Assembly: GCA_963663545.1 (NCBI GenBank)
Contig: OY760505.1
Location: 288,001 to 352,000, forward strand
Reading direction: 5' to 3'
Length of the DNA stretch: 64,000 bases
Source of the DNA: Candidatus Delongbacteria bacterium
GTDB lineage: Bacteria; CAIWAD01
Part shown: one piece after another, positions 1 through 28,420 of the stretch
Layout: each line of letters begins with the position of its first letter
How positions within the stretch are numbered: position 1 is the stretch's first letter
Notes under the pieces: generated by a model
What the model saw: only the letters and a program-made list of their open reading frames with translations
What the model was told of the DNA's origin: nothing
Database searches by the model: none
Translations under genes and position numbers: made by a program

Positions 1-1533
1 GGCCAGGGTGGTGGTGGAAGACTCGGTCTGGGTGATGCCGTTGAAGGTACCCGGCTCGCCCACATCAAAGGCGATGTCCATCATCGAGCCCGTGCCCGAA
101 TCGAAGGTCAGGCTGCCGCCGCCCGAATCGAACTTCCAGCTACCCAGCGATCCATCGTTGTTGAAGACCACCGTACCCGAATTGCCGCTGAAGCTGCGGG
201 CAGGGAAGGGAATGTCCACTTCCCAGGTCCAGGTGTTGGCTTCTTCGCTGCGGGTGAAGGTCATGGTCAGCGTGTGGGCCGAACCCAGACTGTCGTAGAT
301 GGTGATGGAGGTGTCGTGGTTGGTATCCGTGGTGGCAACCTGGAAAGTACCCGCCTGCAGTCCCTCCGGTGCGTAGACCGTCAGGCCGCCATCGCCCAGA
401 TTGGTGATGTTGGTGATCTGACCGGTCAGGGGATCCATGTCACCCAACTCCAGCACGACGGGATCCATCTCGACGCCGCTCGAGGTGGTGAAGATGCTGG
501 TGGCCACCAGGGTCTCGTCCACACCGTCGTCGGCCACCACATCTGAGGTGCCGAAGACCTGTGACAGGATGTTGCTGGTGGTGGCGTCCTCAGTGAGTTC
601 CACGTTCAGGTCGCTGCCGTTACCGAAGTAGGTACGATTGATCACCAGCTCACCGTCCACCAGACGGGCCTCGACGCCGGTCGAGGAGTTCTGGATGGTG
701 CTGATGAAATCGCCGATGGTCGTGTCGGCCGTCAAGCCGTCGATGGTCACGTCGCGCTGTCCGTCGATGGTCAGGGTCAGGTCACCGAAATCGGTAATGC
801 CCAGCTCCTCGAAGGTCGTGGTCACCAGCAGTTCCATGCCCATGGCATTGGTTCCGGTGAAGGTCGACTGCGTGGCGGCCTCACCGGTGACAGTCACGTC
901 GTACACTCCACCCAGGCCGTTGTAGGCCGTGCCACTGACACCCGTCACACCGGCGGTGTTGTTGATGTCGACCAGCGAAGCTTCCGAAGTGCTCTCGGTG
1001 GCGTTCAGATTGCACTTGAACTTCACTTCGGTGGTGGCTTCCGGCGCAATCTTCTGGCCCAGCGGGAGGGAGATAGCACCGATCTCGCTGATGTTGGGCA
1101 GCGCGCCATCCTGATCGGCCATCAGGCCCATCACGCGGTAGCCATTGGAAGAAATAAGGTTGCCGCTTTCATCCACCTGGAAAGCACCGTTGCGCGTGTA
1201 GAGGCGCTCGTTGCCGGCGGCGGTGATGAAAAAGGCGTCGCCCTGAATCGCCAGGTCCGTGTTTGTACCCGTCAACTCCAGGTTGCCCTGCTCGAAAATG
1301 CGGTCGATGGAAGAGACCTTCGTACCCAGGCCGATCTGGATCGGCACCAGGGTGGAGGCTCCACCGGCCGGCTTGAAGCTGTTGCGCAGCGTCTGCGAGA
1401 AGGTGTCGGTAAAGTTTACGCGGCTGCGCTTGAAGCCAACGGTGTTTGCGTTGGCAATGTTGTTACCGACCACATCCAGCTTCTGCTGGTGGGCCATCAA
1501 GCCAGAAATTCCTGTGAAGAGAGAACGCAACAT
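1..1533 (-). CDS. flgE: Flagellar hook protein FlgE (3' end runs off the window; absent from the ORF track)
   Basis: Manual translation from ATG 1533 (RBS GAAAGGAG): MLRSLFTGISGLMAHQQKLDVVGNNIANANTVGFKRSRVNF...GNLELTGTNTDLAIQGDAFF...YTRNGAF, later SITIYDSLG; follows flgD. Confidence 0.95.
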   Translation of the reverse strand, partial: MLRSLFTGISGLMAHQQKLDVVGNNIANANTVGFKRSRVNFTDTFSQTLRNSFKPAGGASTLVPIQIGLGTKVSSIDRIFEQGNLELTGTNTDLAIQGDAFFITAAGNERLYTRNGAFQVDESGNLISSNGYRVMGLMADQDGALPNISEIGAISLPLGQKIAPEATTEVKFKCNLNATESTSEASLVDINNTAGVTGVSGTAYNGLGGVYDVTVTGEAATQSTFTGTNAMGMELLVTTTFEELGITDFGDLTLTIDGQRDVTIDGLTADTTIGDFISTIQNSSTGVEARLVDGELVINRTYFGNGSDLNVELTEDATTSNILSQVFGTSDVVADDGVDETLVATSIFTTSSGVEMDPVVLELGDMDPLTGQITNITNLGDGGLTVYAPEGLQAGTFQVATTDTNHDTSITIYDSLGSAHTLTMTFTRSEEANTWTWEVDIPFPARSFSGNSGTVVFNNDGSLGSWKFDSGGGSLTFDSGTGSMMDIAFDVGEPGTFNGITQTESSTTTLA

Positions 1534-1626: not shown

Positions 1627-2352
1627 TCAGAAAAGATCGCCAACAGCACTGGAGCCATTGGCCGTTTCGTCGCCCGTCTCATCCGGTTCTATGATTTCAG
1701 CCACGGAGGCCATCTCAACCTCCTGGTCGTCGATGATCAACAATGCCAGACCCTCACTGAAATGCACTGCGGTTACTTCGCCGCGCAACATGGCACGAAT
1801 CTCTACTTCCTCACCGGCTGAATCCTCAGCGGAGATCTCGATGGTGTAGGTGCCATCGGGAAGCTGCGTACCCGCGCTATCCTTGCCATCCCAAGAGACC
1901 GTGCCATCTCCATTGGGCTCCGTTGTGAAGCTCGCAAGCTGCGCACCCAGCGAATCCAGCACCTTCACCGTTACCTCAGATGGCTCCACCAACGCTTCAT
2001 AGGAAAGGGTGGCTTCGCCATCACGCAGCAAAATGCCATCGTGCACGGCAACCACTTCCTTACCGATCAAACCTGTGGCCATCTCGCTCTGAACGGAGCT
2101 AGCTAGAACCGTGGTCATCTCGATCTGGGTTTCCATCTGATCGTTCAGGTTTTCCATCTGCTCAAGGGAGGAGAATTGGGCGAGCTGCGCGGCGAACTCT
2201 TGTGACTCAAGTGGATTCAGCGGATCCTGATTCTGCAGCTGCACGACAAGCAATTGCAGGAAGTCGTCCTTGCTCATCACGGAGTTGTCACTGACGACGG
2301 ACGAGGCGTCGTAGGTGTAGGTGTTACTACTGATCGCGGTGATGTCACTCAT
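1627..2352 (-). CDS. flgD: Flagellar hook capping protein FlgD
   Basis: MSKDDFLQLLVVQLQNQDPLNP...FAAQLAQFSSLEQ and WDGKDSAG...LPDGTY motifs; lies between fliK and flgE. Confidence 0.95.
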   Translation of the reverse strand: MSDITAISSNTYTYDASSVVSDNSVMSKDDFLQLLVVQLQNQDPLNPLESQEFAAQLAQFSSLEQMENLNDQMETQIEMTTVLASSVQSEMATGLIGKEVVAVHDGILLRDGEATLSYEALVEPSEVTVKVLDSLGAQLASFTTEPNGDGTVSWDGKDSAGTQLPDGTYTIEISAEDSAGEEVEIRAMLRGEVTAVHFSEGLALLIIDDQEVEMASVAEIIEPDETGDETANGSSAVGDLF

Positions 2353-5300
2353 CTCAATGTCTCCTCACCAAAGGCGGCCATTTCCGATGCGAAATCCGCA
2401 TCGCCCTGTTTCACGCCGACCTCTTCAGGCCGACTCTGACCCTGCTCCTGACCGGATTGCGATCCGGTCTGCTGCCGCCTGGCACTCTCATCCTGCACCG
2501 CCAGCTCCACCTGATCCAGCCGAATGCCGGATCGCTGCAACTGCTCGCGCAGTTCGTTCAACCCCTCGCGCACTGTGTCACGTCCCGCGTGACTCTCAGC
2601 AATCACACGCAGACTTACTTCGCCCTGCTGTTCACTCAACTGCAGCCGAATTCTGCCTAGCTGGGCGGGATTCAACTCCATCAGGGCTTCGCGACGACCG
2701 CTGTACTGCATCAGCCGCATGCGCGCCGATAGGCGCTCCATGTTGGCTATCACCTGTCGACGCTGTTCCGCGCTTTCTTCCGTGGACAGTGAGCGGCTGT
2801 CCATTGTCTGCGCAGTACCTTGCCCGTCGCTGCTGTCAAAGCGCACACGCTGAAGTCCGCTTGTGGAAGCATTCCAGACCACTTTTGTCACGTCTGCAAC
2901 CGGCATCTCCGCAGCCTGCCGTTTCACGCTTGGCAAATCCCGCGCCTGTTTCTGCGAATTGTCTTCCTGTTGCTGTCTCTCGGCGTCTGTTGCGCCAAAA
3001 ACGCGATCCATTTCGCGGCGCAAACGGCTGCCTTCTCCCTGGCTGAGTACACTGTCACGCTCGTTCTGTGTCACAGATGTATCACGGGAATTCGCTTTAA
3101 CTCCGCCGTCTCCACTGTCCAAGCGGTTTCCAAAGCTCGTCGTCTGAAGCGAGTTCACAACTCCCGCCATCTCAGCGCTGCGCATCATTCCCTCGCGGCT
3201 GACCGCAATCAGCACATCCATGTCCTGCAACAAAGCGCTGATGGGACGCTGGCTAATTTGTGCGGACTGAGTTGGTGTCGGTTCAGGAGCTGCAACTAGG
3301 GAAGTTGCGGACTTCTGAAGGGAAAGCTCTTCCGACATTGTTGCAGGCCTTGTGGCGCTTTCTGCCCCTTCTACTTCCTCGGCACTGCGTGCTATATCCA
3401 GCTCGGGCACGGTCCACTCCGTATGTGCAGTGGAGCGATTGCCGGTTTGATTCGCCCAGCGCACAGCGTCAGGCCTAAGCTCATCGTGGATTAGCGATGA
3501 GGTAGCGGTCTGTGTCCCCACGGATGACTGGAACTCATCGGGATTCCCTGTCGCTTTCACGGAAGTAGAATCGTCAGAGGGACTGTCTTGCGCCTGTGTC
3601 ATTTGCTGAGGCTCAGACGGCGTCGCGCTCTGAGATTGCGGCTCAATCGGCAGGGTCGTTGGCTCCGCGACGATCCGTGTCACGGGCGTAGGAGCTGACT
3701 CCATATCAGCAATGGCCTGTGTCTGTGGCGGTGTCACAGTCTGCGGCTGCAGTTCAGTCGGCACGGTCGTTGGATCAGCGGCAACTCGTGTCACAGGCGT
3801 GGAAGTCGATTCGCCAGGCACGCTTGCCTGTGCCTGCGGCTCAATCTGCGATTGCGTGGCGTGTTGCGGCGCAGAGTGAATTGCCTGTTGCGGCTCCGTC
3901 GGCACGACCAACGGCTCAGCGGCAACTCGTGTCACGGGCGTGGAAGTCGAATCGCCAGATGCACCTGCCTGAACCTGCTGCGCGATCTGCGATTGCGCGG
4001 CTTGTTGCGGCGCAGATTGAGTTGCGTGTTGCGGCTCCGTCGGCACGGTTGTTGGATCAGCGGCAACTCGTGTCACGGGCGCGGCTGTCGATTCCGCAGA
4101 TACACTGGCCTGTGCCTGCGGCGCAATCTGCGATTGCGCGGCTTGTTGCGGCGCAGATTGAGTTGCGTGTTGCGGCTCCGTCGGCACGGTTGTTGGATCA
4201 GCGGCAACTCGTGTCACGGGCGCGGCTGTCGATTCCGCAGATACACTGGCCTGTGCCTGCGGCGCAATCTGGGATTGCGTGGATTGTTGCGGCGCAGAGT
4301 GAGTTGCCTGCTGCGGCTCCGTCGGCACGGCCAAAGGCTCAGCGGCAACTCGTGTCACGAGCGCGGCTGTAGAGTCGCCTGACACACTTGTCTGTGCCTG
4401 CGGCACGATCTGCGATTGCGCGGCTTGTTGCGGCGCAGACTGAGTTGCCTGCTGCGGCTGCGTCGGCGCGGCCACCGGTTCAACGGCAACTCGTGTCACG
4501 AGCGCGGCTGTAGAGTCGCCTGACACACTTGTCTGTGCCTGCGGCACGATCTGCGATTGCGCGGCTTGTTGTGGCGCAGAGTGAGTTGCCTGCTGCGGCT
4601 CCGTCGGCACGGCCATCGGCTCAACGCCAACTCGTGTCACGGGCGTGGAAGTCGACTCGCCAGATGCACCAGCCTGAACATGCTGCACGATCTTCGATTG
4701 CGCGGCTTGTTGCGGCGCAGACTGAGTTGCCTGCTGCGGCTGCGTCGGCGCGGCCACCGGTTCAACGGCAACTCGTGTCACGAGCGCGGCTGTAGAGTCG
4801 CCTGACACACTTGTCTGTGCCTGCGGCACGATCTGCGATTGCGCGGCTTGTTGTGGCGCAGAGTGAGTTGCCTGCTGCGGCTCCGTCGGCACGGCCATCG
4901 GCTCAACGCCAACTCGTGTCACGGGCGTGGAAGTCGACTCGCCAGATGCACCAGCCTGAACATGCTGCACGATCTTCGATTGCGCGGCTTGTTGCGGCGC
5001 AGAGTGGGTTGCCTGCTGCGGATCAGTCGAAACGACCGATGGCTCGACGGCTACTCGTGTCACGGACACGGCTGTCGATTCGCCAGACACGTTTGCCTGG
5101 TCCTGCTGCGCGATCTGCGATTGCGCGGTTTGTTGCGGCGCAGATTGAGTTGCCTGTTGCGGCTGCGTCGGCGCGGCCACCGGTTCAACGGCAACTCGTG
5201 TCACGAGCGCGGCTGTAGAGTCGCCTGACACACTTGTCTGTGCCTGCGGCTCGATCTGGGATTGCGCGGCGTGTTGCGGCGCAGAGTGAGTTGCCTGTTG

Positions 5301-8300
5301 CGGCTCCGTCTGCACGGCCAACGGCTCAGCGGCAACTCGTGTCACGGGCGCGGAAGTCGATTCGCCAGGCACGCGTGCTTGAACCTGCGGCTCGATCTGC
5401 GACTGCGCGGCGTGTGGCGGCGCAGAGTGAATTGCCTGTTGCGGCTCCGTCGAAACGACCGTTGACTCAACGACGACTCGTGTCACGGGCGCAGCAGTCG
5501 ATTCGCCAGGCACGCTTGCTTGAACCTGCTGCGCGATCTGCGATTGCGCGGCTTGTTGCGGCGCAGAGTGAGGTGCCTGTTGCGGCTCAGTTGGCACGCC
5601 CAAAGGTTCAACGGCTGCTCGTGTCACGGGCGCAGCAGTCGATTCGCCAGGCACGCTTGCCTGGGCCTGCGGCTCAATCTTCGATTGCGTGGATTGTTGC
5701 GGCGCAGAGTGAGTTGCCTGTTGCGGCTCCGTCGAAACAACCGTTGACTCAGCGACAACTCGTGTCACAGGCGCAGCAGTCGATTCGCCAGACACACTAG
5801 ACTGAACCTGCTGTGCGATCTGCGATTGCGCGGCTTGCTGCGGCGCAGAGTGAATTGCCTGCTGCGACTCCGTCGGCGAGGCCAACGGCTCAGCGCCAAC
5901 TCGTGTCACGGGCGTGGAAGTCGACTCGCCAGATGCACCAGCCAGAACATGCTGCGTGATCTGCGATTTCGTGGCGTGTTGCGGCGCAGAGTGGGTGGCC
6001 TGTTGCGGCTCCGTCGGCGCGGCCATCGGCTCAGCGTTAACTCGTGTCACGGGCGCAGAAGTCGATTCGCCAGATGCACCAGCCAGAACATGCTGCGTGA
6101 TCTGCGATTTCGTGGCGTGTTGCGGCGCAGAGTGGGTGGCCTGTTGCGGCTCCGTCGGCGCGGCCATCGGCTCAGCGTTAACTCGTGTCACGGGCGCAGA
6201 AGTCGATTCGCCAGGCACGCTTGCTTGAACCTGCTGCGCGATCTGCGATTGCGCGGCTTGTTGCGGCGCAGAGTGAGTTGCCTGCTGCGGCTCCGTCGAA
6301 ACGACCGTTGACTCAACGACGACTCGTGTCACGGGCGCAGCAGTCGATTCGCCAGGCACGCTTGCTTGAACCTGCTGCGCGATCTGGGATTGCGCGGCTT
6401 GTTGCGGCGCAGAGTGAGGTGCCTGTTGCGGCTCAGTTGGCACGCCCAAAGGTTCAACGGCTGCTCGTGTCACGGGCGCAGCAGTCGATTCGCCAGGCAC
6501 GCTTGCTTGAACCTGCTGCGCGATCTGGGATTGCGTGGCGTGTTGCGGCTCTGTCGGCGAGACCAACGGCTCGGCGGCAACTCGTGTCATAGGCACAGCA
6601 GTCGATTCGCCAGGCACGTGTGCTTGAACCTGCGGCTCGATCTGCGACTGCGCAGCGTGTTGCGGCGCAGAGTGGGTGGCCTGTTGCGGCTCCGTCGGCG
6701 CAGCCATCGGCTCAACGGCAACTCGTGTCAAGGGCGCAGAAGCAGACTCGGAAGGCACGCTTGCTTGAACCTGCTGCGTGATCTGCGATTGCGTGGCGTG
6801 TTGCGGCGCAGAGTGGGTGGCCTGTTGCGGCTCCGTCGGCACGGTCGTTGGATCAGCGGCAACTCGTGTCACAGGCATTGAAGTCGATTCGCCTGACACG
6901 CTTGCCCGTACCTGCGGCGCGATCTTCGATTGCGCGGCTTGTTGCGGCGCAGAGTGAGTTGCCTGCAGCGGCTCCGTCGGCACGGCCAAAGGCTCAGCGG
7001 CACCTCGTGTCACGGGCACGGCAGTCGAATCGCCAGATGCACCTGCCTGAACCTGTTGCGCGATCTTCGATTGCGCGGCTTGTTGCGGCGCAGAGTGAAT
7101 TGCCTGTTGCGGCTCTGTCGGCACGACCAACGGTTCAGCGACTACTCGTGTCACGGGCGTTGAAGTCGATTCGCCAGACATGCTTGCCTGGGCCTGCGGC
7201 TCAATCTGCGATTGCGCAGCGTGTTGCGGTGCAGAGTGAGGTGCCTGTTGCGGCTCCGTCGGCACGGCCATCGGCTCAGCGGCAACTCGTGTCACAGGCG
7301 CAGCAGTCGATTCGCCAGGCACGCTTGCCTGGGCCTGCTGCGCGATCTGCGATTGCGCGGCTTGTTGCGGCGCAGAGTGAGGTGCCTGCTGAGGCTCCGT
7401 TGGCGCGGCCAACGGTTCAGCGGCAACTCGTGTCACGGGCGCAGAAGCAGACTCGGAAGGCACGCTTGCCTGGGCCTGCGGCTCAATCTTCGATTGCGTG
7501 GCGTGTTGCGGCGCAGAGTGGGTTGCCTGTTGCGGCTCCGTCGACACGGCCAAAGGTTCAACGGCAACTCGTGTCACAGGCGCAGCAGTCGATTCGCCAG
7601 ACACGCTTGCCTGGGCCTGCGGCTCAATCTTCGATTGCGTGGATTGTTGCGGCGCAGAGTGAGTTGCCTGCAGCGGCTCCGACAGCACGGCCACCGGTTC
7701 GGTGGCAACTCGTGTCACGGGCGCAGAAGTCGATTCGCCAGGCACGCTTGCTTGAACCTGCTGCACGATCTTCGATTGCGCAGCTAGTTGCGGCGTAGGT
7801 TGGGTTGCCTGCTGCGGCTCCGTCGGCGCGACCAAAGGTTCAACGGCAACTCCAGTCACGGGCGCGGAAGTCGACTCGCCAGATGCACCAGCCTGAACAT
7901 GCTGCATGATCTTCGATTGCGTGGCGTTTTGCGGCGCAGAGTGAGTTGCCTGCAGCGGCTCAGTTGGCACGGCCAACGGTTCAACGGCAACTCGTGTCAC
8001 GGGCGCAGAAGCAGACTCGGAAGGCACGCTTGCTTGAACCTGCTGCGCGATCTGCGATTGCGTGGCGTGTTGCGGCGCAGAGTGGGTTGCCTGTTGCGGC
8101 TCCGTCGGCGCAGCCATCGGCTCAACGGCAACTCGTGTCACGGGCGAGGCTGTCGACTCGCCAGAAGCACCAGCCTGAACATGCTGCACGATCTTCGATT
8201 GCGCAGCTAGTTGCGGCGTAGGTTGGGTTGCCTGTTGCGGCTCCGTCGGCACGGCCATCGGCTCAGCGCCAACTCGTGTCACGGGCGCGGCAGTCGATAC

Positions 8301-10436
8301 GGCAGACACACTGGCCTGTGCCTGCGGCTCGATCTGCGATTGCGTGGCTTGCTGCGGCGCAGACTGTGTTGCCTGCTGCGGCTCCGTCGGCACGGCCAAT
8401 GGCTCAACGGCACCTCGTGTCACGGACGCGGCTGTCGATTCGCCAGATGCACCAGCCTGAACATGCTGCACGATCTTCGATTGCGCAGCTAGTTGCGGCG
8501 CAGAGTGGGTTGCCTGCTGCGGCTCCGTCGGCACGGCCAATGGCTCAACGGCACCTCGTGTCACGGACGCGGCTGTCGATTCGCCAGACACGTTTGCCTG
8601 GTCCTGCTGCGCGATCTGCGATTGCGCGGCTTGTTGCGGCGTAGGTTGGGTTGCCTGCTGCGGCTCCGTCGGCACGGTCGTTGGATCAGCGGCAACTCGT
8701 GTCACAGGCATTGAAGTCGATTCGCCTGACACGCTTGTCTGGGCCTGGGTCTCGATCTGCGATTGCGTGGCGTTTTGCGGCGCAGAGTGAGTTGCCTGTT
8801 GCGGCTCCGTCGGCGCAGCCAACGGCTCAGCGGCACCTCGTGTCACAGACGCGGCTGTCGATTCGGCAGACACGCTTGCCTGGTCCTGCTGCGCGATCTG
8901 CGATTGCGCGGCTTGTTGCGGCGTAGGTTGGGTTGCCTGCTGCGGCTCCGTCGGCACGGTCGTTGGATCAGCGGCAACTCGTGTCACAGGCATTGAAGTC
9001 GATTCGGCAGACACACTGGCCTGTGCCTGCGGCTCGATCTGCGACTGCATGGATTGCTGCGGCGCAGAGTGAATTGCCTGCTGCGACTCCGTCGGCGAGG
9101 ACAACGGCTCAGCGCCAACTCGTGTCACGGGCGTGGAAGTCGACTCGCCAGATGCACCAGCCTGAACATGCTGCACGATCTTCGATTGCGCAGCTTGTTG
9201 CGGCGTAGATTGGGTCGCCTGCTGCGGCTCCGTCGGCACGGTCGTTGGATCAGCGGCAACTCGTGTCACGGGCGCAGTGGCAGACTCACTAGAGGCGACG
9301 GCCTGTGTCTGTGTCTGTGTCGTTGCTCGCGGTTGCGGCGCAGGCTGCGCACTAGCAGTCGCGATCTCCTGTCTTGCCATTTGCGGCATCGCAACTGCAT
9401 CTGGCCGACTTGTTGAACGGGAAGCAGAATCGCCGTCAAGCTGTGACACGTGCGTTGGCGAAGTTTCTGCAGCCCCAGCCCGCACGGCAGGATTCACAGG
9501 CTCCCGCGAGATCGTGGTCGACTCTTTCGTAAAGACATCGCTTGTCCGATAGCGAATCTGCGCGCTACGCTCGCGCTGCCAGTCCTCCAACGCATCGGCC
9601 TCGTCCTGGAGCTGTTTGAAAGCAAGCACGCCCGATTCTTCGTCAGCGGAAGAGGCTTCGGTCTCGGCACTGGAGTGTGTCACAGCTTCTGCAGGCGATT
9701 CGCTTGTCCTCGGGACATCTGCACTTGTCTGCAGCGTATCACCGGCTTGCGACCGGTCCTGCCGGGTCAAGGTCTGAGCAAGACTCTGCTTCTGAGTCTG
9801 CTGCTGTGCCAACGGTTCCGTCTTCAGCAGCTGCACTTCAGGCCGTGCTTCTGCTGTAGCACGTGGCAGGTTCACGGGAGCTGCATCACCGCGCTGGTAT
9901 TCGTCCGGAGCAGCAACACCACTCATCGAGTCGTTGGCAGCTTCCTCGCCGGTCTTTTTGGCTAGGACGTCAACGCCCTCAGTCGCAGGGCGCGAAGTGG
10001 TGTTTGAGGAGACACTCCACAGCAGTGTGCCTGCCGCATCGGACGATGGTTCCTGCAGCAACTCATGGCTAGGCTCGGATTCATCTTCGCTACCGAAAGA
10101 TGGTGCGAGGGAAGCGTCGACAGCCTTTCGTGACACGGGCTCATCCTGAATCAGCCACTCCTCCAGTAGTTCGCTGGCGCGTGATACGCCGACCGCCGGT
10201 CGTTGCGTGATCAACTGAGAAGTCTGCTCAGGCAGGCTCGAGTTTTTTGTCTTCTCTGCCGATTGATACTGCGCCAGCGCAGCAGCAAAGCTCGTGGCTT
10301 TCCCGCCCTCCTGACTGCGCAGTTCGGCAAGCAGCTGCTCCAACTGGCGACCGGGTGACGCAGAGACGCCTGTACCGGCTTGTTCGCCGGTAGCAAAAAA
10401 GAAGAAACTGCTCTGCGAGTCGACCCTGCCCTGCAT
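2349..10436 (-). CDS. fliK: Giant flagellar hook-length control protein FliK (~2695 aa) with central tandem repeats
   Basis: C-terminal Flg_hook motif ELNPAQLGRIRLQL...LNELREQLQRSGI; position directly before flgD; ATG 10436 is 6 nt after AGGAG. Confidence 0.9.
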   Translation of the reverse strand: MQGRVDSQSSFFFFATGEQAGTGVSASPGRQLEQLLAELRSQEGGKATSFAAALAQYQSAEKTKNSSLPEQTSQLITQRPAVGVSRASELLEEWLIQDEPVSRKAVDASLAPSFGSEDESEPSHELLQEPSSDAAGTLLWSVSSNTTSRPATEGVDVLAKKTGEEAANDSMSGVAAPDEYQRGDAAPVNLPRATAEARPEVQLLKTEPLAQQQTQKQSLAQTLTRQDRSQAGDTLQTSADVPRTSESPAEAVTHSSAETEASSADEESGVLAFKQLQDEADALEDWQRERSAQIRYRTSDVFTKESTTISREPVNPAVRAGAAETSPTHVSQLDGDSASRSTSRPDAVAMPQMARQEIATASAQPAPQPRATTQTQTQAVASSESATAPVTRVAADPTTVPTEPQQATQSTPQQAAQSKIVQHVQAGASGESTSTPVTRVGAEPLSSPTESQQAIHSAPQQSMQSQIEPQAQASVSAESTSMPVTRVAADPTTVPTEPQQATQPTPQQAAQSQIAQQDQASVSAESTAASVTRGAAEPLAAPTEPQQATHSAPQNATQSQIETQAQTSVSGESTSMPVTRVAADPTTVPTEPQQATQPTPQQAAQSQIAQQDQANVSGESTAASVTRGAVEPLAVPTEPQQATHSAPQLAAQSKIVQHVQAGASGESTAASVTRGAVEPLAVPTEPQQATQSAPQQATQSQIEPQAQASVSAVSTAAPVTRVGAEPMAVPTEPQQATQPTPQLAAQSKIVQHVQAGASGESTASPVTRVAVEPMAAPTEPQQATHSAPQHATQSQIAQQVQASVPSESASAPVTRVAVEPLAVPTEPLQATHSAPQNATQSKIMQHVQAGASGESTSAPVTGVAVEPLVAPTEPQQATQPTPQLAAQSKIVQQVQASVPGESTSAPVTRVATEPVAVLSEPLQATHSAPQQSTQSKIEPQAQASVSGESTAAPVTRVAVEPLAVSTEPQQATHSAPQHATQSKIEPQAQASVPSESASAPVTRVAAEPLAAPTEPQQAPHSAPQQAAQSQIAQQAQASVPGESTAAPVTRVAAEPMAVPTEPQQAPHSAPQHAAQSQIEPQAQASMSGESTSTPVTRVVAEPLVVPTEPQQAIHSAPQQAAQSKIAQQVQAGASGDSTAVPVTRGAAEPLAVPTEPLQATHSAPQQAAQSKIAPQVRASVSGESTSMPVTRVAADPTTVPTEPQQATHSAPQHATQSQITQQVQASVPSESASAPLTRVAVEPMAAPTEPQQATHSAPQHAAQSQIEPQVQAHVPGESTAVPMTRVAAEPLVSPTEPQHATQSQIAQQVQASVPGESTAAPVTRAAVEPLGVPTEPQQAPHSAPQQAAQSQIAQQVQASVPGESTAAPVTRVVVESTVVSTEPQQATHSAPQQAAQSQIAQQVQASVPGESTSAPVTRVNAEPMAAPTEPQQATHSAPQHATKSQITQHVLAGASGESTSAPVTRVNAEPMAAPTEPQQATHSAPQHATKSQITQHVLAGASGESTSTPVTRVGAEPLASPTESQQAIHSAPQQAAQSQIAQQVQSSVSGESTAAPVTRVVAESTVVSTEPQQATHSAPQQSTQSKIEPQAQASVPGESTAAPVTRAAVEPLGVPTEPQQAPHSAPQQAAQSQIAQQVQASVPGESTAAPVTRVVVESTVVSTEPQQAIHSAPPHAAQSQIEPQVQARVPGESTSAPVTRVAAEPLAVQTEPQQATHSAPQHAAQSQIEPQAQTSVSGDSTAALVTRVAVEPVAAPTQPQQATQSAPQQTAQSQIAQQDQANVSGESTAVSVTRVAVEPSVVSTDPQQATHSAPQQAAQSKIVQHVQAGASGESTSTPVTRVGVEPMAVPTEPQQATHSAPQQAAQSQIVPQAQTSVSGDSTAALVTRVAVEPVAAPTQPQQATQSAPQQAAQSKIVQHVQAGASGESTSTPVTRVGVEPMAVPTEPQQATHSAPQQAAQSQIVPQAQTSVSGDSTAALVTRVAVEPVAAPTQPQQATQSAPQQAAQSQIVPQAQTSVSGDSTAALVTRVAAEPLAVPTEPQQATHSAPQQSTQSQIAPQAQASVSAESTAAPVTRVAADPTTVPTEPQHATQSAPQQAAQSQIAPQAQASVSAESTAAPVTRVAADPTTVPTEPQHATQSAPQQAAQSQIAQQVQAGASGDSTSTPVTRVAAEPLVVPTEPQQAIHSAPQHATQSQIEPQAQASVPGESTSTPVTRVAADPTTVPTELQPQTVTPPQTQAIADMESAPTPVTRIVAEPTTLPIEPQSQSATPSEPQQMTQAQDSPSDDSTSVKATGNPDEFQSSVGTQTATSSLIHDELRPDAVRWANQTGNRSTAHTEWTVPELDIARSAEEVEGAESATRPATMSEELSLQKSATSLVAAPEPTPTQSAQISQRPISALLQDMDVLIAVSREGMMRSAEMAGVVNSLQTTSFGNRLDSGDGGVKANSRDTSVTQNERDSVLSQGEGSRLRREMDRVFGATDAERQQQEDNSQKQARDLPSVKRQAAEMPVADVTKVVWNASTSGLQRVRFDSSDGQGTAQTMDSRSLSTEESAEQRRQVIANMERLSARMRLMQYSGRREALMELNPAQLGRIRLQLSEQQGEVSLRVIAESHAGRDTVREGLNELREQLQRSGIRLDQVELAVQDESARRQQTGSQSGQEQGQSRPEEVGVKQGDADFASEMAAFGEETLR
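3760..9290 (-). repeat. Coding tandem repeat, 141 bp (47 aa), ~40 diverged copies inside fliK
   Basis: Anchor ACTCGTGTCAC at 3784, 3925, 4066 ... 9259; the 5475-bp span equals 39x141 minus one 24-bp deletion near 6545. Confidence 0.95.
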
Positions 10437-10445
10437 GGGCAACTC

Positions 10446-11072
10446 CTAACTCTTTTCCCGTTGCTCGATGGCCAAGGCCCTTTCACGAATCAGGCGCGAA
10501 ATTCCGGCGGCGCGCTCGGGGGGCATTGCCGCAAGGATTTTTGCGGCAGTTCGCTCTTCGATCTGCAGCAGAATGGCCGCCACGCTGCGATCGTCCATCT
10601 TCATCATAACGGGAGCCGCCTTGCGCGGCTGCATCGAACCAAAGACGCGCGAGAGGCGCGCGATGTCGCCGGAGGTCAGCTCCAGCTCGCGACGTTCCAT
10701 TTCATCTAGCTGTTCACGCAGGGAATCCAGCCGCGAGATCATGCGAGCGGTTGAATCCTGCATCATGGCCAACTGGGTATTCTTCTCGACGACGTGATCC
10801 ACCAACTCGCCAATGGCCATGCTCAGACTGTCGGCCAGAAGCGAATCCATGGCGGCCTCGTACAGCGGATTGGGCCGGTTCTGCTCCAGCTCCGTCTGCG
10901 TGGCCTCCAGCTCTTCCATGTTCTTCTGGAAAAAGAAGAACATCATCATGTTGATGATGGCCATCGAGGTAAAGAAAGCGCCGACGACCAGCAGAACTTT
11001 CCCACCCTTCTTCTTGCCACCCTTTTTCGGCGGCTCCTGAGCCTCGCCTTCAAGGCGTTCTTTTTCGGCCAT
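10446..11072 (-). CDS. MotE/FlbB-like (MgtE N-terminal-domain) flagellar protein with N-terminal TM helix
   Basis: One TM segment, coiled coil, then VFGSMQPRKAAPVMMKM...AAKILAAMPPERAA; usual slot between fliJ and fliK. Confidence 0.75.
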   Translation of the reverse strand: MAEKERLEGEAQEPPKKGGKKKGGKVLLVVGAFFTSMAIINMMMFFFFQKNMEELEATQTELEQNRPNPLYEAAMDSLLADSLSMAIGELVDHVVEKNTQLAMMQDSTARMISRLDSLREQLDEMERRELELTSGDIARLSRVFGSMQPRKAAPVMMKMDDRSVAAILLQIEERTAAKILAAMPPERAAGISRLIRERALAIEQREKS

Positions 11073-11095: not shown

Positions 11096-11602
11096 CTAGC
11101 GCCCGGACCGCTTGCTGCCTAGAGTTTTCGACTTCGCGCGCTCTTCGCCCGGTCGCGTGTGATCCAAACGCTGCCAGGCCTCGCGCAATCCGATATCATC
11201 CAATACGACCCGTTCGGCATGCGCTTCTTCGCGCAGCCAGGCTTCCTGCCATCGTTCGTGGAGGCGATCGAAAGCCTGCCGATCGCGGCCAGCCTCCACC
11301 AGTCGCTCGCGCGCCTTCTGCAGCGGCTCCTGTAGCAACTCCATCTTGGCTGAACGCCGACGGATATTCAGCTCCTGCCACTCCAGATACGCGTTCACCA
11401 GCGTCCAGCGATCTGAGGAAATTCCTGCCGCCATTTCCTCGCCGGCGCGCTCGTTCATCTCACAGAGCAATTGACGGGCCTCTTCCAGCGAACGCCGCTG
11501 GAGCTCCTGCTCCTGCAACAGTGCGCCCAGCTCGAGCTTGCGCTTTTTCTCGAGGCGCTCTTTGATGCGTTGCACACGCTTCAGCCGAAAACTGGCGCTC
11601 AT
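11096..11602 (-). CDS. fliJ: Flagellar export protein FliJ
   Basis: FRLKRVQRIKE N-terminus, coiled coil, E...LDD C-terminal motif; overlaps the fliI stop. Confidence 0.85.
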   Translation of the reverse strand: MSASFRLKRVQRIKERLEKKRKLELGALLQEQELQRRSLEEARQLLCEMNERAGEEMAAGISSDRWTLVNAYLEWQELNIRRRSAKMELLQEPLQKARERLVEAGRDRQAFDRLHERWQEAWLREEAHAERVVLDDIGLREAWQRLDHTRPGEERAKSKTLGSKRSGR

Positions 11603-12957
11603 CGCGCGCCCTGGGCCTGCGTGCTACGCGCCGCGCTTTGTGCTTGCTGAGTCAGAAGGCGCAGTCCCTCAAGGGTGTCTGCGAAGCGTGTGCCCTCGTA
11701 CATATCCTGCTGTAGAAAGGTGCGAATGGATTCCATGCGACGTAGCGCTTCGTCCACATCGGGATCCGCCCCGCGCTGGTAGGCGCCGATCTGGATCAAA
11801 TCCTCCGCTTCCTGATGGGCGGCCAGCCAGCGCTGCAATCTGCGGCTGGACTGCAAGTGCTCGGCGTCGACCAGATCGGTCATGACGCGTGATACACTGG
11901 CCAAAGTGTCGATGGCCGGATAATGGCCGCGGTCCGCCAGTCGCCGCGAAAGCACCATGTGACCATCCAGGATCGAGCGGGCCGAATCGGCAATGGGATC
12001 GGTCATGTCGTCGCCATCAACGAGCACCGTGTAGAAAGCGGTAATGGCGCCGTGCTGGTCGCGACCGGTACGTTCCAGCAGCGAAGGCAGCAGCGCAAAA
12101 ACCGAAGGCGTGTAGCCCTTTGTGGTCGGCGGCTCACCCGCTGCCAGACCAATCTCCCGCTGCGCCATGGCCACACGCGTGAGACTGTCCATCAGCAGCA
12201 GCACGTCCAACCCACGATCGCGGAAGCTCTCCGCCAGTGCCGTGGCCATTTGCGCGCCGCGCCGCTTCAGCAGCGGTGCCATGTCGCTGGTAACCACGAC
12301 GACCACGCTGCGCGCCAGACCCTCAGGCCCCAGGTCGCGCTCGATGAACTCGCGCACTTCGCGACCGCGCTCGCCGATGAGCCCGATCACGTTGACCTGC
12401 GCACTGCTCATGCGCGAAATCATGCCCAGCAGCACACTCTTGCCCACACCCGCACCAGCAAAGATGCCGACGCGCTGGCCGCTGCCGCAGGTGAGTTGAG
12501 AATCGATGGCGCGAATTCCGGTGGACAGTACCTGGTCGATACGCGGGCGACTGAGAGCTGCGGGTGCCAGGCGATGCAGCGGAACGGATTCCACTGTCGC
12601 CAAGGGCCCCAAGCCATCCAGTGGCCTGCCGAGCGGATCGATAACGCGGCCCAGGAGCTGCATGCCCGCAGGCACCGTGGGCGGCAGCGGGCTGCGTCTC
12701 ACTGTATCACCAGGACTAATTCCCGTCAAATCGCCCAAGGGCATCAGCAGTGTGTTACCGGCGCGAAAGCCGATGATCTCGGCCTCAATGCTGCCGCCGT
12801 CACGGGCGCGCTCGATGCGGCAGGCGTCGCCCAGACTGCCCTCCGGGCCACGACTCTCAACCACCAGACCCGTGACACGATCCACGCGACCCAGCAACGG
12901 CCAGGCCTGCTGGTGGATCACGCTCTCGTAGAGCCCGCTCAGTGCCAGCTCGCTCAC
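11599..12957 (-). CDS. fliI: Flagellar export ATPase FliI
   Basis: Walker A GAGVGKS, IGERGREV, MDSLTR, GEPPTTKGYTPS motifs. Confidence 0.97.
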   Translation of the reverse strand: MSELALSGLYESVIHQQAWPLLGRVDRVTGLVVESRGPEGSLGDACRIERARDGGSIEAEIIGFRAGNTLLMPLGDLTGISPGDTVRRSPLPPTVPAGMQLLGRVIDPLGRPLDGLGPLATVESVPLHRLAPAALSRPRIDQVLSTGIRAIDSQLTCGSGQRVGIFAGAGVGKSVLLGMISRMSSAQVNVIGLIGERGREVREFIERDLGPEGLARSVVVVVTSDMAPLLKRRGAQMATALAESFRDRGLDVLLLMDSLTRVAMAQREIGLAAGEPPTTKGYTPSVFALLPSLLERTGRDQHGAITAFYTVLVDGDDMTDPIADSARSILDGHMVLSRRLADRGHYPAIDTLASVSRVMTDLVDAEHLQSSRRLQRWLAAHQEAEDLIQIGAYQRGADPDVDEALRRMESIRTFLQQDMYEGTRFADTLEGLRLLTQQAQSAARSTQAQGAR

Positions 12958-13691
12958 GCCTCGTCCTCGGTAGCGGGACGTCGGACAATGGCCGCCAACG
13001 CCTGTTCCTCGAGATGGGCGAGCATTTCAGCAGGCAGTGTGTCGACGACGCCGTGCGCCAACTCCAGACGGCAGGAGCCCAGTGGGATCTCGGGACTCGC
13101 TACCCATTCAACACGCCCCTGCAAGCGCTGTCTAAGCTGTTCCATGCCAGGGTCCGCACTCAGACGACGGCGGTCCTCGGGGTGCAGACGAAAGCGATAC
13201 ACGTCCTCGCCCGCCCAGTGCTCCACCAGCTCGCGCACTTGACGCCCCAGCAACTGTTCGTCCAGCGGCAGTTCGCGCGCCAGCACACGTTCGGCCATCC
13301 AGCGCACCAGGCGCACCAGCTCACGATCTGCATCACGGTGATACTCGCCGGCTGCACGACGGAACTCCGTCTGCATCAGCGCAATCAGGCTGAACTGCTC
13401 GCGCATCTGCGCCAGCATTTCCTCGCGTCCCTGCTCGCGTCCCTCCTCGAGGGCCTGATTGGAGGCGGCCTCGAGACGACGATCCTCTTCAGCGGCCATC
13501 TCCGCCAGACTGGCCATCAGGCGACGATTATCCTCCTGCAAACGCTCGATGCGGCGCTGGTAGACGCGCATGGCGGTGCGCTCGCGCTCGCTGGCTTCGG
13601 GCATGCGCTGTGTGACACGCACTTCCTCAGGGCTTGCGGTATCGACGTAGCTCGCGCCTCCGGCTCGTATGCGGTCGGCGGGAATGATCAC
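12954..13691 (-). CDS. fliH: Flagellar assembly protein FliH
   Basis: EEGREQGREE repeats, LHPED, GSCRLELAHGVVD; between fliG and fliI. Confidence 0.88.
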   Translation of the reverse strand: MIIPADRIRAGGASYVDTASPEEVRVTQRMPEASERERTAMRVYQRRIERLQEDNRRLMASLAEMAAEEDRRLEAASNQALEEGREQGREEMLAQMREQFSLIALMQTEFRRAAGEYHRDADRELVRLVRWMAERVLARELPLDEQLLGRQVRELVEHWAGEDVYRFRLHPEDRRRLSADPGMEQLRQRLQGRVEWVASPEIPLGSCRLELAHGVVDTLPAEMLAHLEEQALAAIVRRPATEDEA

Positions 13692-13704
13692 AATGCGCTC
13701 CTGA

Positions 13705-14727
13705 TTAGACCATCACATCGCTGTTGTCGGAGGTACGGCTGATATGGATCTGGCCCTCCTCCTCGAGGCGACGGATGACGTCGACGATGCGCTGCTGCAC
13801 CTCTTCCACTTCGCGCAGACGCACCGGCGGCATGAATTCGAGTTCTTCGCGGATCATCTCGGCGGCACGGCTGGAGACGTTGCCCAGCATCTTGTCCGCC
13901 AGATCCGAGGTACAGGCCTTCAGCGCCAGCGTCAAGTCCTTGTTGTCCACCTCGCGCAGCACCTGCTGAATGGTGCGATCGTCCATGTTGATGATGTCTT
14001 CGAAGACGAACATCAGGTTCTTGATTTCGGCGGACAGATCCGGATCCTCGCGCGAAATGCCCTGCAGCACGCTCTTCTCCACACTCGAACCCGTCAGGTT
14101 GAGGATGTCGGCGGCCGCCTTTACGCCACCCAGCACCGAACCCATGGCGCTGAAGTCGATGCGGCTCTCGAGCACGCGCTCGACGCTCTGGATGGTTTCC
14201 GGTGATACACGCTCCATCTTCGAGAAGCGCAGGAGCGCCTCCGTGGCGATGTCCGTGGGCAGATTGGCCAGAATGTCGGCCGCCTGGGGCGGACTGAGCT
14301 GAGTCAGCACTAGCGCGATGGTCTGGGGGTGTTCACGCTGCAGGAAGCTCAGCAGCTCGCTGGAGTCCACATCTTTGAGCACGTTGAAGCCCTTGATTTG
14401 CAGACTGGCTTTCACTCGCTTGATGATGTCGATGGCCCTCATTTCGCCCAGTGCGCTCTGCAGCACATTCTGAGCGTAGTTCATACCGCCTTCCTTGATG
14501 TAGTCGGAGGCGAGAACCATTTCGTAAAAATCCTCTTCGGATGCACTCAAAACATCGGCGGGCATGTTTCCGAGCTGGATGATCTCCTTGGTGATCAGCT
14601 CCACTTCGTCGTCTTCGAGGTGCTTGATCACTTCGGTGGCCGACTCGGGACCGATGCTGATCATGAAAGCGGCCGCCTTCTGGATGCCGCTAAGTTCCTC
14701 GTACTGGGTCAGTCTGTCCTGTGACAT
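13705..14727 (-). CDS. fliG: Flagellar motor switch protein FliG
   Basis: LSGIQKAA, EHPQTIALVL, GGVKAAADILN, MFVFED, VEEVQQRIV motifs. Confidence 0.97.
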   Translation of the reverse strand: MSQDRLTQYEELSGIQKAAAFMISIGPESATEVIKHLEDDEVELITKEIIQLGNMPADVLSASEEDFYEMVLASDYIKEGGMNYAQNVLQSALGEMRAIDIIKRVKASLQIKGFNVLKDVDSSELLSFLQREHPQTIALVLTQLSPPQAADILANLPTDIATEALLRFSKMERVSPETIQSVERVLESRIDFSAMGSVLGGVKAAADILNLTGSSVEKSVLQGISREDPDLSAEIKNLMFVFEDIINMDDRTIQQVLREVDNKDLTLALKACTSDLADKMLGNVSSRAAEMIREELEFMPPVRLREVEEVQQRIVDVIRRLEEEGQIHISRTSDNSDVMV

Positions 14728-14730
14728 GGC

Positions 14731-16290
14731 TCAGGCCTCCAGCAGCCAGGTGCGCACCAGGCGGGCTGCTTCTTCGGGACTTTCCTTGCAGAACTCCATC
14801 ACCTTGCGGTGCGTGCGAATCAGCTGCCGCTGTTCGGGCGAACGCTGGTTCTCCGCCTCGGCGGAAAGCGGCATATCGTCCTCGGGTTCGTCGCCACTGC
14901 GACCACGGGCGCTGGCCAGAATCAAGGCACGCTTGTCGTCGAAGGCCACGCTGATGCTGCGATTGACGCGCACCACCACGTTGCGCAGCGTGATCAGAAA
15001 GACCACGATGCCAACCACAAAGATGATCTTGCGCAGAATATCCACACCGATGTTCTGGTACTGCATGCGACGCAGGCCGCTCATTTGGTCTTCGCGCTCG
15101 CTATTGTCGAAGGCGATGTTCATGGCGCTGATTTCGTCGCCGCGTGAGGCACTGAAACCGACGGCGGCCTTGAGCACATTGCCCAGACGCGCCATCTCGT
15201 CATCGCTGCGCGGCATGTAGGTCATGACCTGATCGCCGTCCTGCTCTACTTCCACGTAGGTGCCGTCCACCACCAGGGATACCGTGATACGTCGCAGGGC
15301 GCCCTGCTGGCCACGACTGTGCTCGAGGATCTCGTTCACCTCGTAATTCGTGATACGCCGCTCCTGATTGGTGGCGCTGGTATCCTGGGCGGTGCTGCTC
15401 TCTTCGTTGCTCTCCTGACTGCGCACGCTGCGCTTCTCAGGATCGAAGAGGCGGCTGGTGCGCTCGAGATAGGTGAAGTCCAGCTCTGCGGCCACGCGTA
15501 CTACACTGCGACCGGCGCCCAGCACCTGGTCCATCACCTGCTGGCCGGCGCGGGTCAGATAGGCATCGACGCGGCGATTGAGCTCGAGCTGCTTGTTGGT
15601 GACGGTGAAGAACTCGCTCTGGTCGCTGGCCTCGTTGAGCAGACGGCCACGGCTGTCCACGACGGTGACACGCGTGGGATCCAGGTTTTCGACGCTGGCG
15701 GCCACCAGCGCCACCACGCTCTGCACTTCGGCAGCGGGCGCCTGGGCTCCGACGGTGACCAGTGTGACGCTGGCGGTAACGGGCACGTCCTCGTCGCTGA
15801 AGAGGCTGGGTCGCGGCTGCACGATGTGTACGGTGGCGGCCTCGATCCAGTCGAGGGCGGCCAGCGTGCGCGCCAACTCGCCCTCGAGCGCGCGCTTCTG
15901 CATCATCTCCAGTTCGCGATCGCTGATGCCCAGTCGCTGCTGATCCAGCAGCTCGTAACCCGCGATGGGTTTGTGCGGACCTCCGTCGGCGGCCAGTTTG
16001 ATGCGCAGACGGTAGAGCTCGCTGCGGGGCACCATGACCGTACCGCCGCCCGCCGTCAACTTGTAGGGCACCTTCTGCGCTTCGAGGCTCTCCACCACCT
16101 TGCCGGCTTCGGCCTCCGCCAGGTTCGAGTAGAGGGGCGCCCAGTCGGGCTGGCTGGCCCAGACGCCCAGCAGCACGATCAGCACCAGACCGCCCACCAG
16201 CGCGGCGCCCGTCAATACCAGGCGCACGCGACCAGGGCCGTTCCAGCTCTCGCGCACATAATCCAAAAGGCTTTGTAGGAACTTGGGCAC
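14731..16290 (-). CDS. fliF: Flagellar M-ring protein FliF
   Basis: Two TM segments; GYELLD, RALEGELARTL, VAASVENL, AVGFSASRGDEI motifs. Confidence 0.96.
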   Translation of the reverse strand: MPKFLQSLLDYVRESWNGPGRVRLVLTGAALVGGLVLIVLLGVWASQPDWAPLYSNLAEAEAGKVVESLEAQKVPYKLTAGGGTVMVPRSELYRLRIKLAADGGPHKPIAGYELLDQQRLGISDRELEMMQKRALEGELARTLAALDWIEAATVHIVQPRPSLFSDEDVPVTASVTLVTVGAQAPAAEVQSVVALVAASVENLDPTRVTVVDSRGRLLNEASDQSEFFTVTNKQLELNRRVDAYLTRAGQQVMDQVLGAGRSVVRVAAELDFTYLERTSRLFDPEKRSVRSQESNEESSTAQDTSATNQERRITNYEVNEILEHSRGQQGALRRITVSLVVDGTYVEVEQDGDQVMTYMPRSDDEMARLGNVLKAAVGFSASRGDEISAMNIAFDNSEREDQMSGLRRMQYQNIGVDILRKIIFVVGIVVFLITLRNVVVRVNRSISVAFDDKRALILASARGRSGDEPEDDMPLSAEAENQRSPEQRQLIRTHRKVMEFCKESPEEAARLVRTWLLEA

Positions 16291-16304
16291 GGTTCAACTC
16301 CGCC

Positions 16305-16649
16305 TTAGATCTGCATTCTCATGACTTCCTGGTAGCCTTCCATCAGCTTGTTGCGGACCTCCACCAGAAAGCGGAAGGAGGTGCTGGCCTTTTCCATGGC
16401 CAGCATGGCGTCGTGGACATTCTCCACTTCGCCAGCGATGAAGCGCGCAGACATTTCGTCGCTGTTCACCTGCTGCTCGTTGACCGATTCCACCACCTTC
16501 TTCATGGTGTCGGTGAAGCTCGGCCCGTCGACGCTGCTGCTGCCTTGTGATACACCGGTGCCACTCGTTCCCGTGCGGATTCCGGCGGTCTCGTTGCGGT
16601 AGCCGGAAAGCAGCTGGTTGAAGCGTTCGCTGGGACTGATTACCGCCAT
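16305..16649 (-). CDS. fliE: Hook-basal body complex protein FliE
   Basis: C-terminal EVRNKLMEGYQEVMRMQI. Confidence 0.95.
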   Translation of the reverse strand: MAVISPSERFNQLLSGYRNETAGIRTGTSGTGVSQGSSSVDGPSFTDTMKKVVESVNEQQVNSDEMSARFIAGEVENVHDAMLAMEKASTSFRFLVEVRNKLMEGYQEVMRMQI

Positions 16650-16650
16650 A

Positions 16651-17151
16651 CTAGATCTCCAGAGCCTTGGCAGCCATTTCCTTGGCGGCCTGAATCGCCG
16701 TCAAGTTCGCCTCGTAAGCGCGACTGGCCGCAATCAAGTGCGTCATTTCTTCCACCAGATTGATGTCGGGATAGGCCACATAGCCGTTCTCGTCCGCGTC
16801 GGGATGGTCGGGATCGAACTCCATGCGCGGCTTGCGGTTCTGGGTCTGAATCTCCGCCTGGACGCCGTGCAGGGATTCGGGATAATCGCCCGCCTCGGTG
16901 GAGTTGATGTGATCCGGATGCGTGGTCAGGATCTCCACGCCCTCACGCTGCTCGGGATCGAAGTACTCCTGCTGCAGCTCGCCCTCGCGCATGGTGGTTA
17001 CCAGCGGCTGAAAGGGACCGCCGTTGGCGCCGCGCGTGGTGTGCACGTTGGCGATGTTCTCGCTGATGGCGTCCATGCGGCGACGCTGGGCCTGCAGCCC
17101 GCTGCGGCTGATGTCCAGATTGAAGAAAGCGGTGGGGTCCTGAATCTTCAT
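16651..17151 (-). CDS. flgC: Basal body rod protein FlgC
   Basis: ISRSGLQAQRRRMDAISENIAN; FDPDHPDADENGYVAYPDINLVEEM...SRAYEAN. Confidence 0.96.
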   Translation of the reverse strand: MKIQDPTAFFNLDISRSGLQAQRRRMDAISENIANVHTTRGANGGPFQPLVTTMREGELQQEYFDPEQREGVEILTTHPDHINSTEAGDYPESLHGVQAEIQTQNRKPRMEFDPDHPDADENGYVAYPDINLVEEMTHLIAASRAYEANLTAIQAAKEMAAKALEI

Positions 17152-17167
17152 TCTCTACACCTTGTGA

Positions 17168-28394: not shown

Positions 28395-28420
28395 TCCTAT
28401 CACCTCTATCATTTCACGAA

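Follow-up and report, generated by a model that had tools for sequence, protein, structure and literature searches.

How long can the flagellar length-control protein FliK become, and is the added length read out in the hook? The question is raised by a stretch of 64,000 nucleotides (nt) from a Candidatus Delongbacteria bacterium (assembly GCA_963663545.1, contig OY760505.1, positions 288,001 to 352,000; hereafter, the window), in which an earlier annotation made from the letters alone (the original prediction) pointed to a giant fliK. We found that the window encodes, in the fliK slot of a flagellar operon, a protein of 2695 amino acids (aa) in which a single C-terminal substrate-specificity-switch domain follows a very long spacer built from tandem repeats of 47 aa. 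The gene is almost certainly a functional fliK orthologue. That its spacer acts as a ruler and yields clearly lengthened hooks is a proposal, which we weigh below against other explanations. The gene and its parts, all on the minus strand, are as follows.

2349..10436, minus strand: fliK coding sequence, 2695 aa plus stop (open reading frame, AGGAG motif and overlap with flgD)
9360..10436, minus strand: N-terminal non-repeat region, aa 1–359 (no Pfam family at E ≤ 0.01; composition)
3633..9359, minus strand: tandem array, aa 360–2268, with 39 clear 47-aa units and 2 degenerate ones (Tandem Repeats Finder and anchor motifs)
2721..3632, minus strand: non-repeat linker between array and switch domain, aa 2269–2572 (no family of its own in the C-terminal piece)
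2484..2720, minus strand: Flg_hook/T3S4 substrate-specificity-switch domain, aa 2573–2651 (Pfam PF02120, match to 2rrl and predicted fold)
2352..2483, minus strand: C-terminal tail, aa 2652–2695, rich in Q, E, G and S (sequence; low model confidence)

Identity of the giant protein as FliK

The C-terminal hook-control motif of the original prediction passed the hidden Markov model check that had been proposed for it: Flg_hook (PF02120) matched aa 2573–2651 with an E value of 3.9e-13 and 49.5 bits (curated Pfam cut-off, 29.8), and matched the C-terminal 427 aa alone with an E value of 1.1e-13 and 51.3 bits. The model of HpaP, an injectisome relative, stayed below its threshold on the C-terminal piece (19.3 bits; cut-off, 23.8). 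A phmmer search of PDB sequences returned a single match, the FliK C-terminal domain 2rrl (E = 9.5e-5). We also modelled the last 200 aa with AlphaFold; the input alignment comprised 63 FliK C-termini taken from the comparison loci described below. The model had a mean predicted local distance difference test score (pLDDT) of 72.1, with blocks of 80–96 across model residues 61–150, and the predicted switch domain was arranged as a helix, four strands, a helix and a strand; confidence in the linker was low to about aa 2551, followed by a helix at aa 2552–2572. Foldseek gave one match at E ≤ 0.001, the switch domain of PscP (5cuk; E = 2.3e-4, template modelling score 0.53 on the target), followed by FliK-C (2rrl; E = 1.3e-3), and all matches below these two were weak. 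Each of the 30 nearest ESM Atlas clusters carries Flg_hook. The protein has the plan that marks a FliK, one C-terminal switch domain behind a flexible, low-complexity spacer, the disorder of the spacer being a prediction. We rejected the idea that the protein is long because it carries several switch domains, given the single domain recognized by both Pfam and a profile scan; the profile, built from library matches, found no second Flg_hook domain in the 64 kb, and because it was seeded with the giant protein only this absence is informative.

The longest frame in the list of open reading frames (2349..10442, minus strand) starts at a TTG and encodes 2697 aa. Translation probably begins instead at the ATG at 10436, for a product of 2695 aa, because an AGGAG motif that overlaps the stop codon of the gene upstream lies 6 nt before this ATG, whereas the TTG at 10442 has no spacer from the motif. 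At the other end, the fliK stop and the flgD start overlap as ATGA, a sign that the two genes are translationally coupled. In order of transcription, the operon reads flgB-flgC-fliE-fliF-fliG-fliH-fliI-fliJ-flbB/ylxF-like-fliK-flgD-flgE, all on the same strand, by Pfam.

1..1533, minus strand: flgE (hook protein), first 511 aa, running past the window edge (Pfam Flg_bb_rod, LlgE_F_G_D1 and FlgE_D2)
1627..2352, minus strand: flgD (hook cap) (Pfam FlgD, FlgD_ig and FLgD_tudor; ATGA overlap with fliK)
10446..11072, minus strand: flbB/ylxF-like gene directly upstream of fliK (weak MgtE_N and FlbB matches)
11096..17629, minus strand: upstream part of the operon, comprising fliJ, fliI, fliH, fliG, fliF, fliE, flgC and flgB (a Pfam match for each gene)
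11096..11602, minus strand: fliJ (Pfam)
17168..17629, minus strand: flgB (Pfam)

The product of 10446..11072 matched MgtE_N at 25.0 bits (Pfam cut-off, 25.9) and the NCBIfam model of FlbB, a collar protein of spirochaetes, at 29.9 bits (cut-off, 110); we take the gene to occupy the ylxF/flbB position. Among 65 comparison loci in which flgD was found, an open reading frame in the fliK slot immediately precedes flgD in 64, so that, judged by gene order, the giant gene is in the fliK slot. The original prediction, which described a single uninterrupted reading frame at 2349..10436 in the fliK position, was right about the coordinates and the slot, and its assignment of the gene as fliK is borne out by the domain model, the 2rrl sequence match, the predicted fold and this position.

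The N-terminal region (aa 1–359) is acidic (net charge −23) and matched no Pfam or NCBIfam family. In Salmonella FliK the corresponding region includes the signal for export and makes contact with both the hook and its cap; by analogy, aa 1–359 should hold an export signal and a part that senses the hook or its cap. A predicted complex of FliK aa 1–160 with FlgD scored 0.00 (mark, 0.32), a result that says nothing either way, the partner being poorly folded in the model.

A spacer of 47-residue repeats

The array spans 1909 aa and consists of 39 clear units with one degenerate unit at either end, in agreement with the roughly 40 repeats of 47 aa originally predicted. Tandem Repeats Finder detected a 141-nt period over 3746–9277 with about 39 copies overall (19.8 copies at 3757–6549 and 19.4 copies at 6544–9277), as well as super-periods of 282 and 423 nt over 3746–9275. 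At the protein level, 41 anchor motifs are spaced by 47 aa in 38 of the 40 intervals, by 39 aa in one and by 37 aa in one, and one junction within the array is short by 8 aa. The 36 full-length in-register units share a mean identity of 70% in amino acids (53–100%) and 82% in nucleotides (72–100%). Six of the 47 columns are invariant across these units (A1, P6, S12, I14, S26 and T32), and four more (V31, R33, T43 and Q7) deviate in one unit each.

The composition is strongly skewed: A, Q, P, S, T and V make up 79% of the array (S and T, 22%; P, 12%), much as in the Q/A/S/T/P-rich extension first described, and the array has no aromatic residues, no cysteine and a net charge of −77. The repeats matched no Pfam or NCBIfam family. 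A model of four units, computed with an alignment of 30 overlapping four-unit stretches of the array itself, had a pLDDT of 35.9 and no secondary structure. We rejected a string of folded domains on the basis of this model, in which the array looks like an intrinsically disordered, proline-punctuated chain.

Selection, age and assembly of the array

The array frame has stayed open despite extensive divergence. The 36 full units differ from the unit consensus at 602 positions in total, and when changes were scattered with the observed substitution spectrum in 2000 trials, the simulated arrays acquired a mean of 31 stop codons (minimum, 14; no trial was stop-free), whereas the real array has none. 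The units share ancestry, which makes the number of independent changes smaller than 602, although the gap to zero observed stops is still very large. Both length changes in the array are in frame (multiples of three). Variability is highest at third codon positions (0.165; first, 0.096; second, 0.094), and the ratio of nonsynonymous to synonymous substitution rates (dN/dS) between units is about 0.52. By these measures of sequence change, the array frame is under selection and the exact unit sequence is loosely constrained, a pattern expected of a spacer in which length and general chemistry outweigh individual residues.

Most units differ by 5–13% of their nucleotides from the nearest other unit, and only 6 of the 630 unit pairs are at least 95% identical (22/28, 30/33, 30/35, 32/34, 33/35 and 37/38). 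The divergence pattern shows that the array is old and diversified and has recently undergone a few duplications of two units, and it is therefore still evolving. The longest exact duplicate (309 nt) lies in units 32–35, its copies 282 nt apart, and 591 of the 5727 array bases (10.3%) fall in exact repeats of at least 150 nt. A few units around units 30–36 may have been miscounted in the assembly; any collapse or inflation is limited to a few units because most units differ by 5–13% from their nearest neighbour in sequence. The assembly piece that carries the Tgt gene of the window has 3,721,866 bases, which suggests a whole or near-whole chromosome in a high-quality, probably long-read assembly.

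Length compared with other FliK proteins

As a comparison panel we used 80 fliI loci from genome contigs, with FliI proteins 49–61% identical to the query and no close relative among them. A profile search found a FliK reading frame in 64 of these loci, 63 of them full-length and one a 92-aa fragment. The 63 full-length FliKs, from loci of similar flagellar gene order, are 380–1192 aa long (median, 482), and the giant FliK is 5.6 times the panel median and 2.3 times the panel maximum. Most panel FliKs of 700–1192 aa belong to Ignavibacteria, Melioribacter, Calditrichia, Neomarinimicrobiota and similar metagenome-assembled genomes.

When the C-terminal 426 aa were searched with phmmer against a library of 1.84 billion representative proteins, 1936 matches reached E ≤ 0.001 and only ten of them E ≤ 1e-10, with identity over the domain about 40% at best, so there is no close relative of the giant FliK in this library as judged by sequence similarity. 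The best 150 of the 1936 matches are 122–1894 aa long (median, 469.5). The original description of this FliK as giant therefore survives both comparisons (2695 aa, against maxima of 1192 aa in the panel and 1894 aa among the best 150).

Six of the seven longest proteins among these best 150 relatives are long through 2–11 Flg_hook domains (P0002 has 11 Flg_hook stretches, P0003 has 5, P0007 has 4, P0008 has 5, P0039 has 6 and P0017 has 2), P0002 having a proline-rich N-terminal repeat besides. We found no report of a FliK with multiple switch domains in the literature searched on FliK and hook length. P0146 is the only one of these seven with the plan of the giant FliK. Among the panel loci, the cultured Sporomusa silvacetica (L021, 13039–15111) encodes a 690-aa FliK with a 25-aa internal periodicity (autocorrelation, 0.32), a small-scale repeat spacer. 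No giant or repeat-built FliK was found in the literature searched, coverage of which lies mostly outside subscription journals. The FliK family and the ruler principle are already known; a natural, repeat-amplified ruler of 39 units and 2695 aa appears to be absent from that literature.

Relation to known length-measuring proteins

The FliK of Salmonella enterica (405 aa; 2rrl) resembles the giant FliK in having a single C-terminal Flg_hook/T3S4 domain after a flexible spacer, in being encoded in a flagellar operon and, if the ruler reading below is right, in following the principle of 0.2 nm per residue described in the accessible part of PMC6126814. The giant FliK is 6.7 times longer, and its spacer is a 39-unit, proline-rich array predicted to be disordered, whereas the same source describes the central region of the Salmonella protein as partly helical. 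The gene order here (fliJ-ylxF/flbB-fliK-flgD-flgE) is that of Bacillus and the comparison-panel genomes and differs from that of Salmonella.

P0146 (1405 aa) has the same plan, with one C-terminal Flg_hook domain (aa 1273–1352) behind a long tandem array of 69-aa period (autocorrelation, 0.58). It is half as long as the giant FliK, its lysine- and glycine-rich unit is unrelated and of a different period, and the similarity between the two proteins is confined to the switch-domain region (phmmer E = 1.1e-6, 22% identity). P0146 is a separate, independent example of a ruler spacer built from repeats.

YscP, the needle ruler of Yersinia, also has a T3S4 switch domain, and that of the related PscP (5cuk) is the best fold match to our model. 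Tandem repeats of 14, 25 and 46 aa account for the natural differences in YscP length among strains, and needle length is linearly related to YscP size, as stated in the accessible text of PMC3469391. YscP is an injectisome protein of 452–538 aa with a handful of repeats, in contrast to the 39 units of the giant FliK in its flagellar operon. We rejected a YscP/PscP-type injectisome ruler for the giant protein, given that its neighbours are all flagellar and that HpaP stayed below the cut-off; no injectisome genes were recognized in the window by Pfam or NCBIfam.

Phage tail tape-measure proteins obey the same principle, protein length setting tube length, but these helical proteins remain within the tube, in contrast to the exported FliK. 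They have no sequence relation to the giant FliK, which matched no tape-measure family in Pfam.

Proposed mechanism and hook length

We propose that this FliK is secreted and determines when export changes over from hook to filament proteins, and that it does so with the usual three-part plan of a FliK (an N-terminal region, a spacer and a single T3S4 switch domain at the C terminus). A 141-nt unit has been duplicated in tandem, which has amplified the spacer into a 1909-aa acidic, proline-rich, aromatic-free and predicted disordered chain. The protein would be exported through the growing rod and hook with its N terminus retained within this structure or at its tip, and the switch domain would reach FlhB, flipping its specificity, only once the hook was long enough to draw the spacer out. 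With so long a spacer, switching would be delayed and hooks of a few hundred nanometres would be expected. Unequal recombination between units would offer the lineage a simple way to alter ruler length.

The size of the effect can be extrapolated from Salmonella. The wild-type hook measures about 55 nm (PMC6972891, accessible part), and in the accessible part of PMC6126814 each inserted residue adds 0.2 nm, FliKs of 363–785 aa giving hooks of 42–135 nm; both sources agree with the scaling and the approximately 55-nm hook cited in the original prediction. The Salmonella rule gives 55 + 0.2 × (2695 − 405), or about 510 nm, for the giant FliK, plain proportion gives about 370 nm and the array alone would account for about 380 nm (9.4 nm per unit). 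Very long hooks of about 0.4–0.5 µm are thus plausible by linear extrapolation, which reaches 3.4-fold past the tested range with a rate taken from helical inserts and applied here to a proline-rich, predicted disordered chain. Such a chain could yield more nanometres per residue if stretched and fewer if slack.

The strength of our claims differs accordingly between the parts of this proposal. To the whole explanation, in which the array is a ruler spacer that gives clearly lengthened hooks, we assign an even chance. The stronger version, a hook or hook-like FlgE filament of several hundred nanometres, up to about ten times the Salmonella hook and set by a disordered 1909-residue ruler, is tentative, at somewhat less than an even chance. 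Equally tentative is its corollary that gain and loss of units (47 aa, about 9 nm each by the Salmonella rule) may act as a heritable dial of hook length.

Several observations weigh against the ruler proposal or limit its reach. In the accessible part of PMC6126814 the linear rule was tested only up to 785 aa, with helical inserts and in another phylum, and hook length is described there as optimized for bundle stability; a half-micron hook might for that reason function badly, at any rate where flagella form a bundle. The dN/dS of about 0.52 means that the unit sequence is loosely constrained, and the copy number of the array, which has exact repeats of up to 309 nt within units 30–36, is that of the assembly. 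The N-terminal 359 aa and the array had no blastp match among the 64 FliK reading frames from other genomes (a comparison set to which the Salmonella N terminus did not belong), and a profile of 16 FliK N-termini aligned to the N terminus with an hhalign probability of 0.1%; for the N terminus both comparisons have little power and weigh little in either direction, given that the references share a mean column identity of 18%. No flhB was found in the 64-kb window. A word-index search with the C-terminal 427 aa (protein classes of 1482–4717 aa and 30–1481 aa) gave no relatives at E ≤ 0.001; the giant protein itself was absent from the results for both classes, whereas the Tgt of the window was retrieved at 100% identity in its own search, and the giant protein seems to be missing from that collection. 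The host seems to be uncultured and known from sequence alone.

Alternative explanations

The most serious alternative is a true FliK whose array is not read as length, so that hooks are ordinary or modestly longer. The switch domain could come into contact with FlhB early if the disordered chain were slack, or the protein could act by timing, as in the infrequent-ruler idea, in which FliK acts mainly in this way; the array would then be a neutral expansion or would serve the secreted protein in another way, for example as an extracellular chain that is mucin-like and possibly glycosylated. The predicted disorder of the array, in place of helix, speaks for this explanation, as do the loose constraint on the unit sequence (dN/dS about 0.52) and the content of S and T (22%) and P (12%), which recalls secreted stalk or mucin-like regions. 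Natural FliKs moreover span 380–1192 aa, and we found no report of hooks scaling with that length. Yet no glycosylation genes were recognized adjoining the operon in Pfam and NCBIfam annotation, six of the 47 unit positions are invariant across 36 units, and an open, in-frame 5.7 kb and the export of 1909 extra residues per molecule would be costly if length were idle. Engineered changes in ruler length, furthermore, changed hook or needle length linearly throughout the accessible parts of PMC6126814 and PMC3469391. On balance we consider an array that is not read as length unlikely, though not strongly so. The original prediction also offered a thick envelope to be spanned as a possible use of the repeats. 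The length of the rod is controlled in other ways, however, and a chain of 1909 residues is far longer than any envelope would require.

Two further explanations are improbable. The length could be an artefact of assembly, with fewer or more real units and an unreliable figure of 2695 aa. A long tandem array of 141-nt period is hard for short reads, a stretch of 309 nt recurs exactly within units 32–35, its copies offset by 282 nt, and the word-index searches did not retrieve the protein although the Tgt of the window was retrieved; but only 10.3% of array bases lie in exact repeats of at least 150 nt, the 5–13% divergence of most units leaves room for the collapse or inflation of only a few, the frame is open from end to end and the 3,721,866-base piece points to a high-quality, probably long-read assembly, which together make a seriously wrong length improbable. 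Still less probable is a decaying or functionless fliK, in a flagellar system that is being lost or lacks length control, with the array a product of runaway slippage. The extreme length and the loose constraint on the units would fit such decay, but they are set against zero stops where the simulation gave a mean of 31, two length changes that both keep the frame, an intact ribosome-binding site and translational coupling to flgD, eleven neighbouring flagellar genes that are all intact and match their families, and a switch domain above its curated cut-off. The preferred explanation remains a functional FliK with the array as its ruler spacer, at the strength given above.

Other features of the window

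The neighbouring hook protein is itself large and unusual. In the first 511 aa of FlgE (1–1533), the rod motif lies at aa 7–35, D1 at aa 95–153 and D2 at aa 401–509, and the roughly 250 aa that separate D1 from D2 matched no Pfam family; the enlarged hook subunit adjoining an enlarged ruler may be connected with it. An Rfam scan of the window found no RNA families and no rRNA. The closest named relatives of the Tgt encoded in the window are from Candidatus Delongbacteria metagenome-assembled genomes (71% and 69% identity), and other relatives reach 74%; the source is probably an uncultured member of that candidate phylum or a neighbour of it.

Beyond the flagellar operon, a SIR2_2-domain protein with a weak Dsr1 match adjoins a protein with DUF4062 and an Mrr_cat nuclease domain, and a PIN-domain protein lies at some distance from them (27009–29454 and 19130–19534, minus strand); by their domains, these genes look like a small defence island just beyond the operon. 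At 30818–35843 (plus strand), a DnaE-type polymerase gene comes after one that resembles Y-family polymerases (DNA polymerase IV); for the DnaE-type protein the error-prone polymerase model scored almost as high as the DnaE model, both below cut-off; the pair looks, from these matches, like a mutagenesis cassette.

Duplication is also seen elsewhere in the window. Adjacent paralogues of 1393 and 1395 aa with PorU-like and choice-of-anchor J regions lie at 37925–46611 (plus strand) and share 72–76% DNA identity. At 47686–59078 (minus strand), a tandem duplication of about 5.8 kb carries a gene pair twice (876 and 953 aa; 874 and 950 aa), with sampled 300-nt stretches 88–99% identical, and each of the encoded proteins ends in a type IX secretion system sorting domain. 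Several window proteins carry such sorting domains by NCBIfam.

Implications

FliK is the textbook protein that measures length on the nanometre scale, and in the accessible part of PMC6126814 its rule was tested with engineered proteins of up to 785 aa only. A natural FliK of 2695 aa is a ready test of how far the ruler scales, of whether a disordered, proline-rich chain measures as a helical one does, and of how swimming is affected by a very long hook. The spacer is divided into discrete steps of 47 aa, which could be grafted singly. Together with P0146 and YscP, the giant FliK indicates that tandem amplification is a recurring evolutionary way to retune type III rulers. If the reading of several hundred nanometres is true, this FliK would be the longest known molecular ruler acting through a type III channel, and the ruler principle would hold over a more than six-fold range of protein length.

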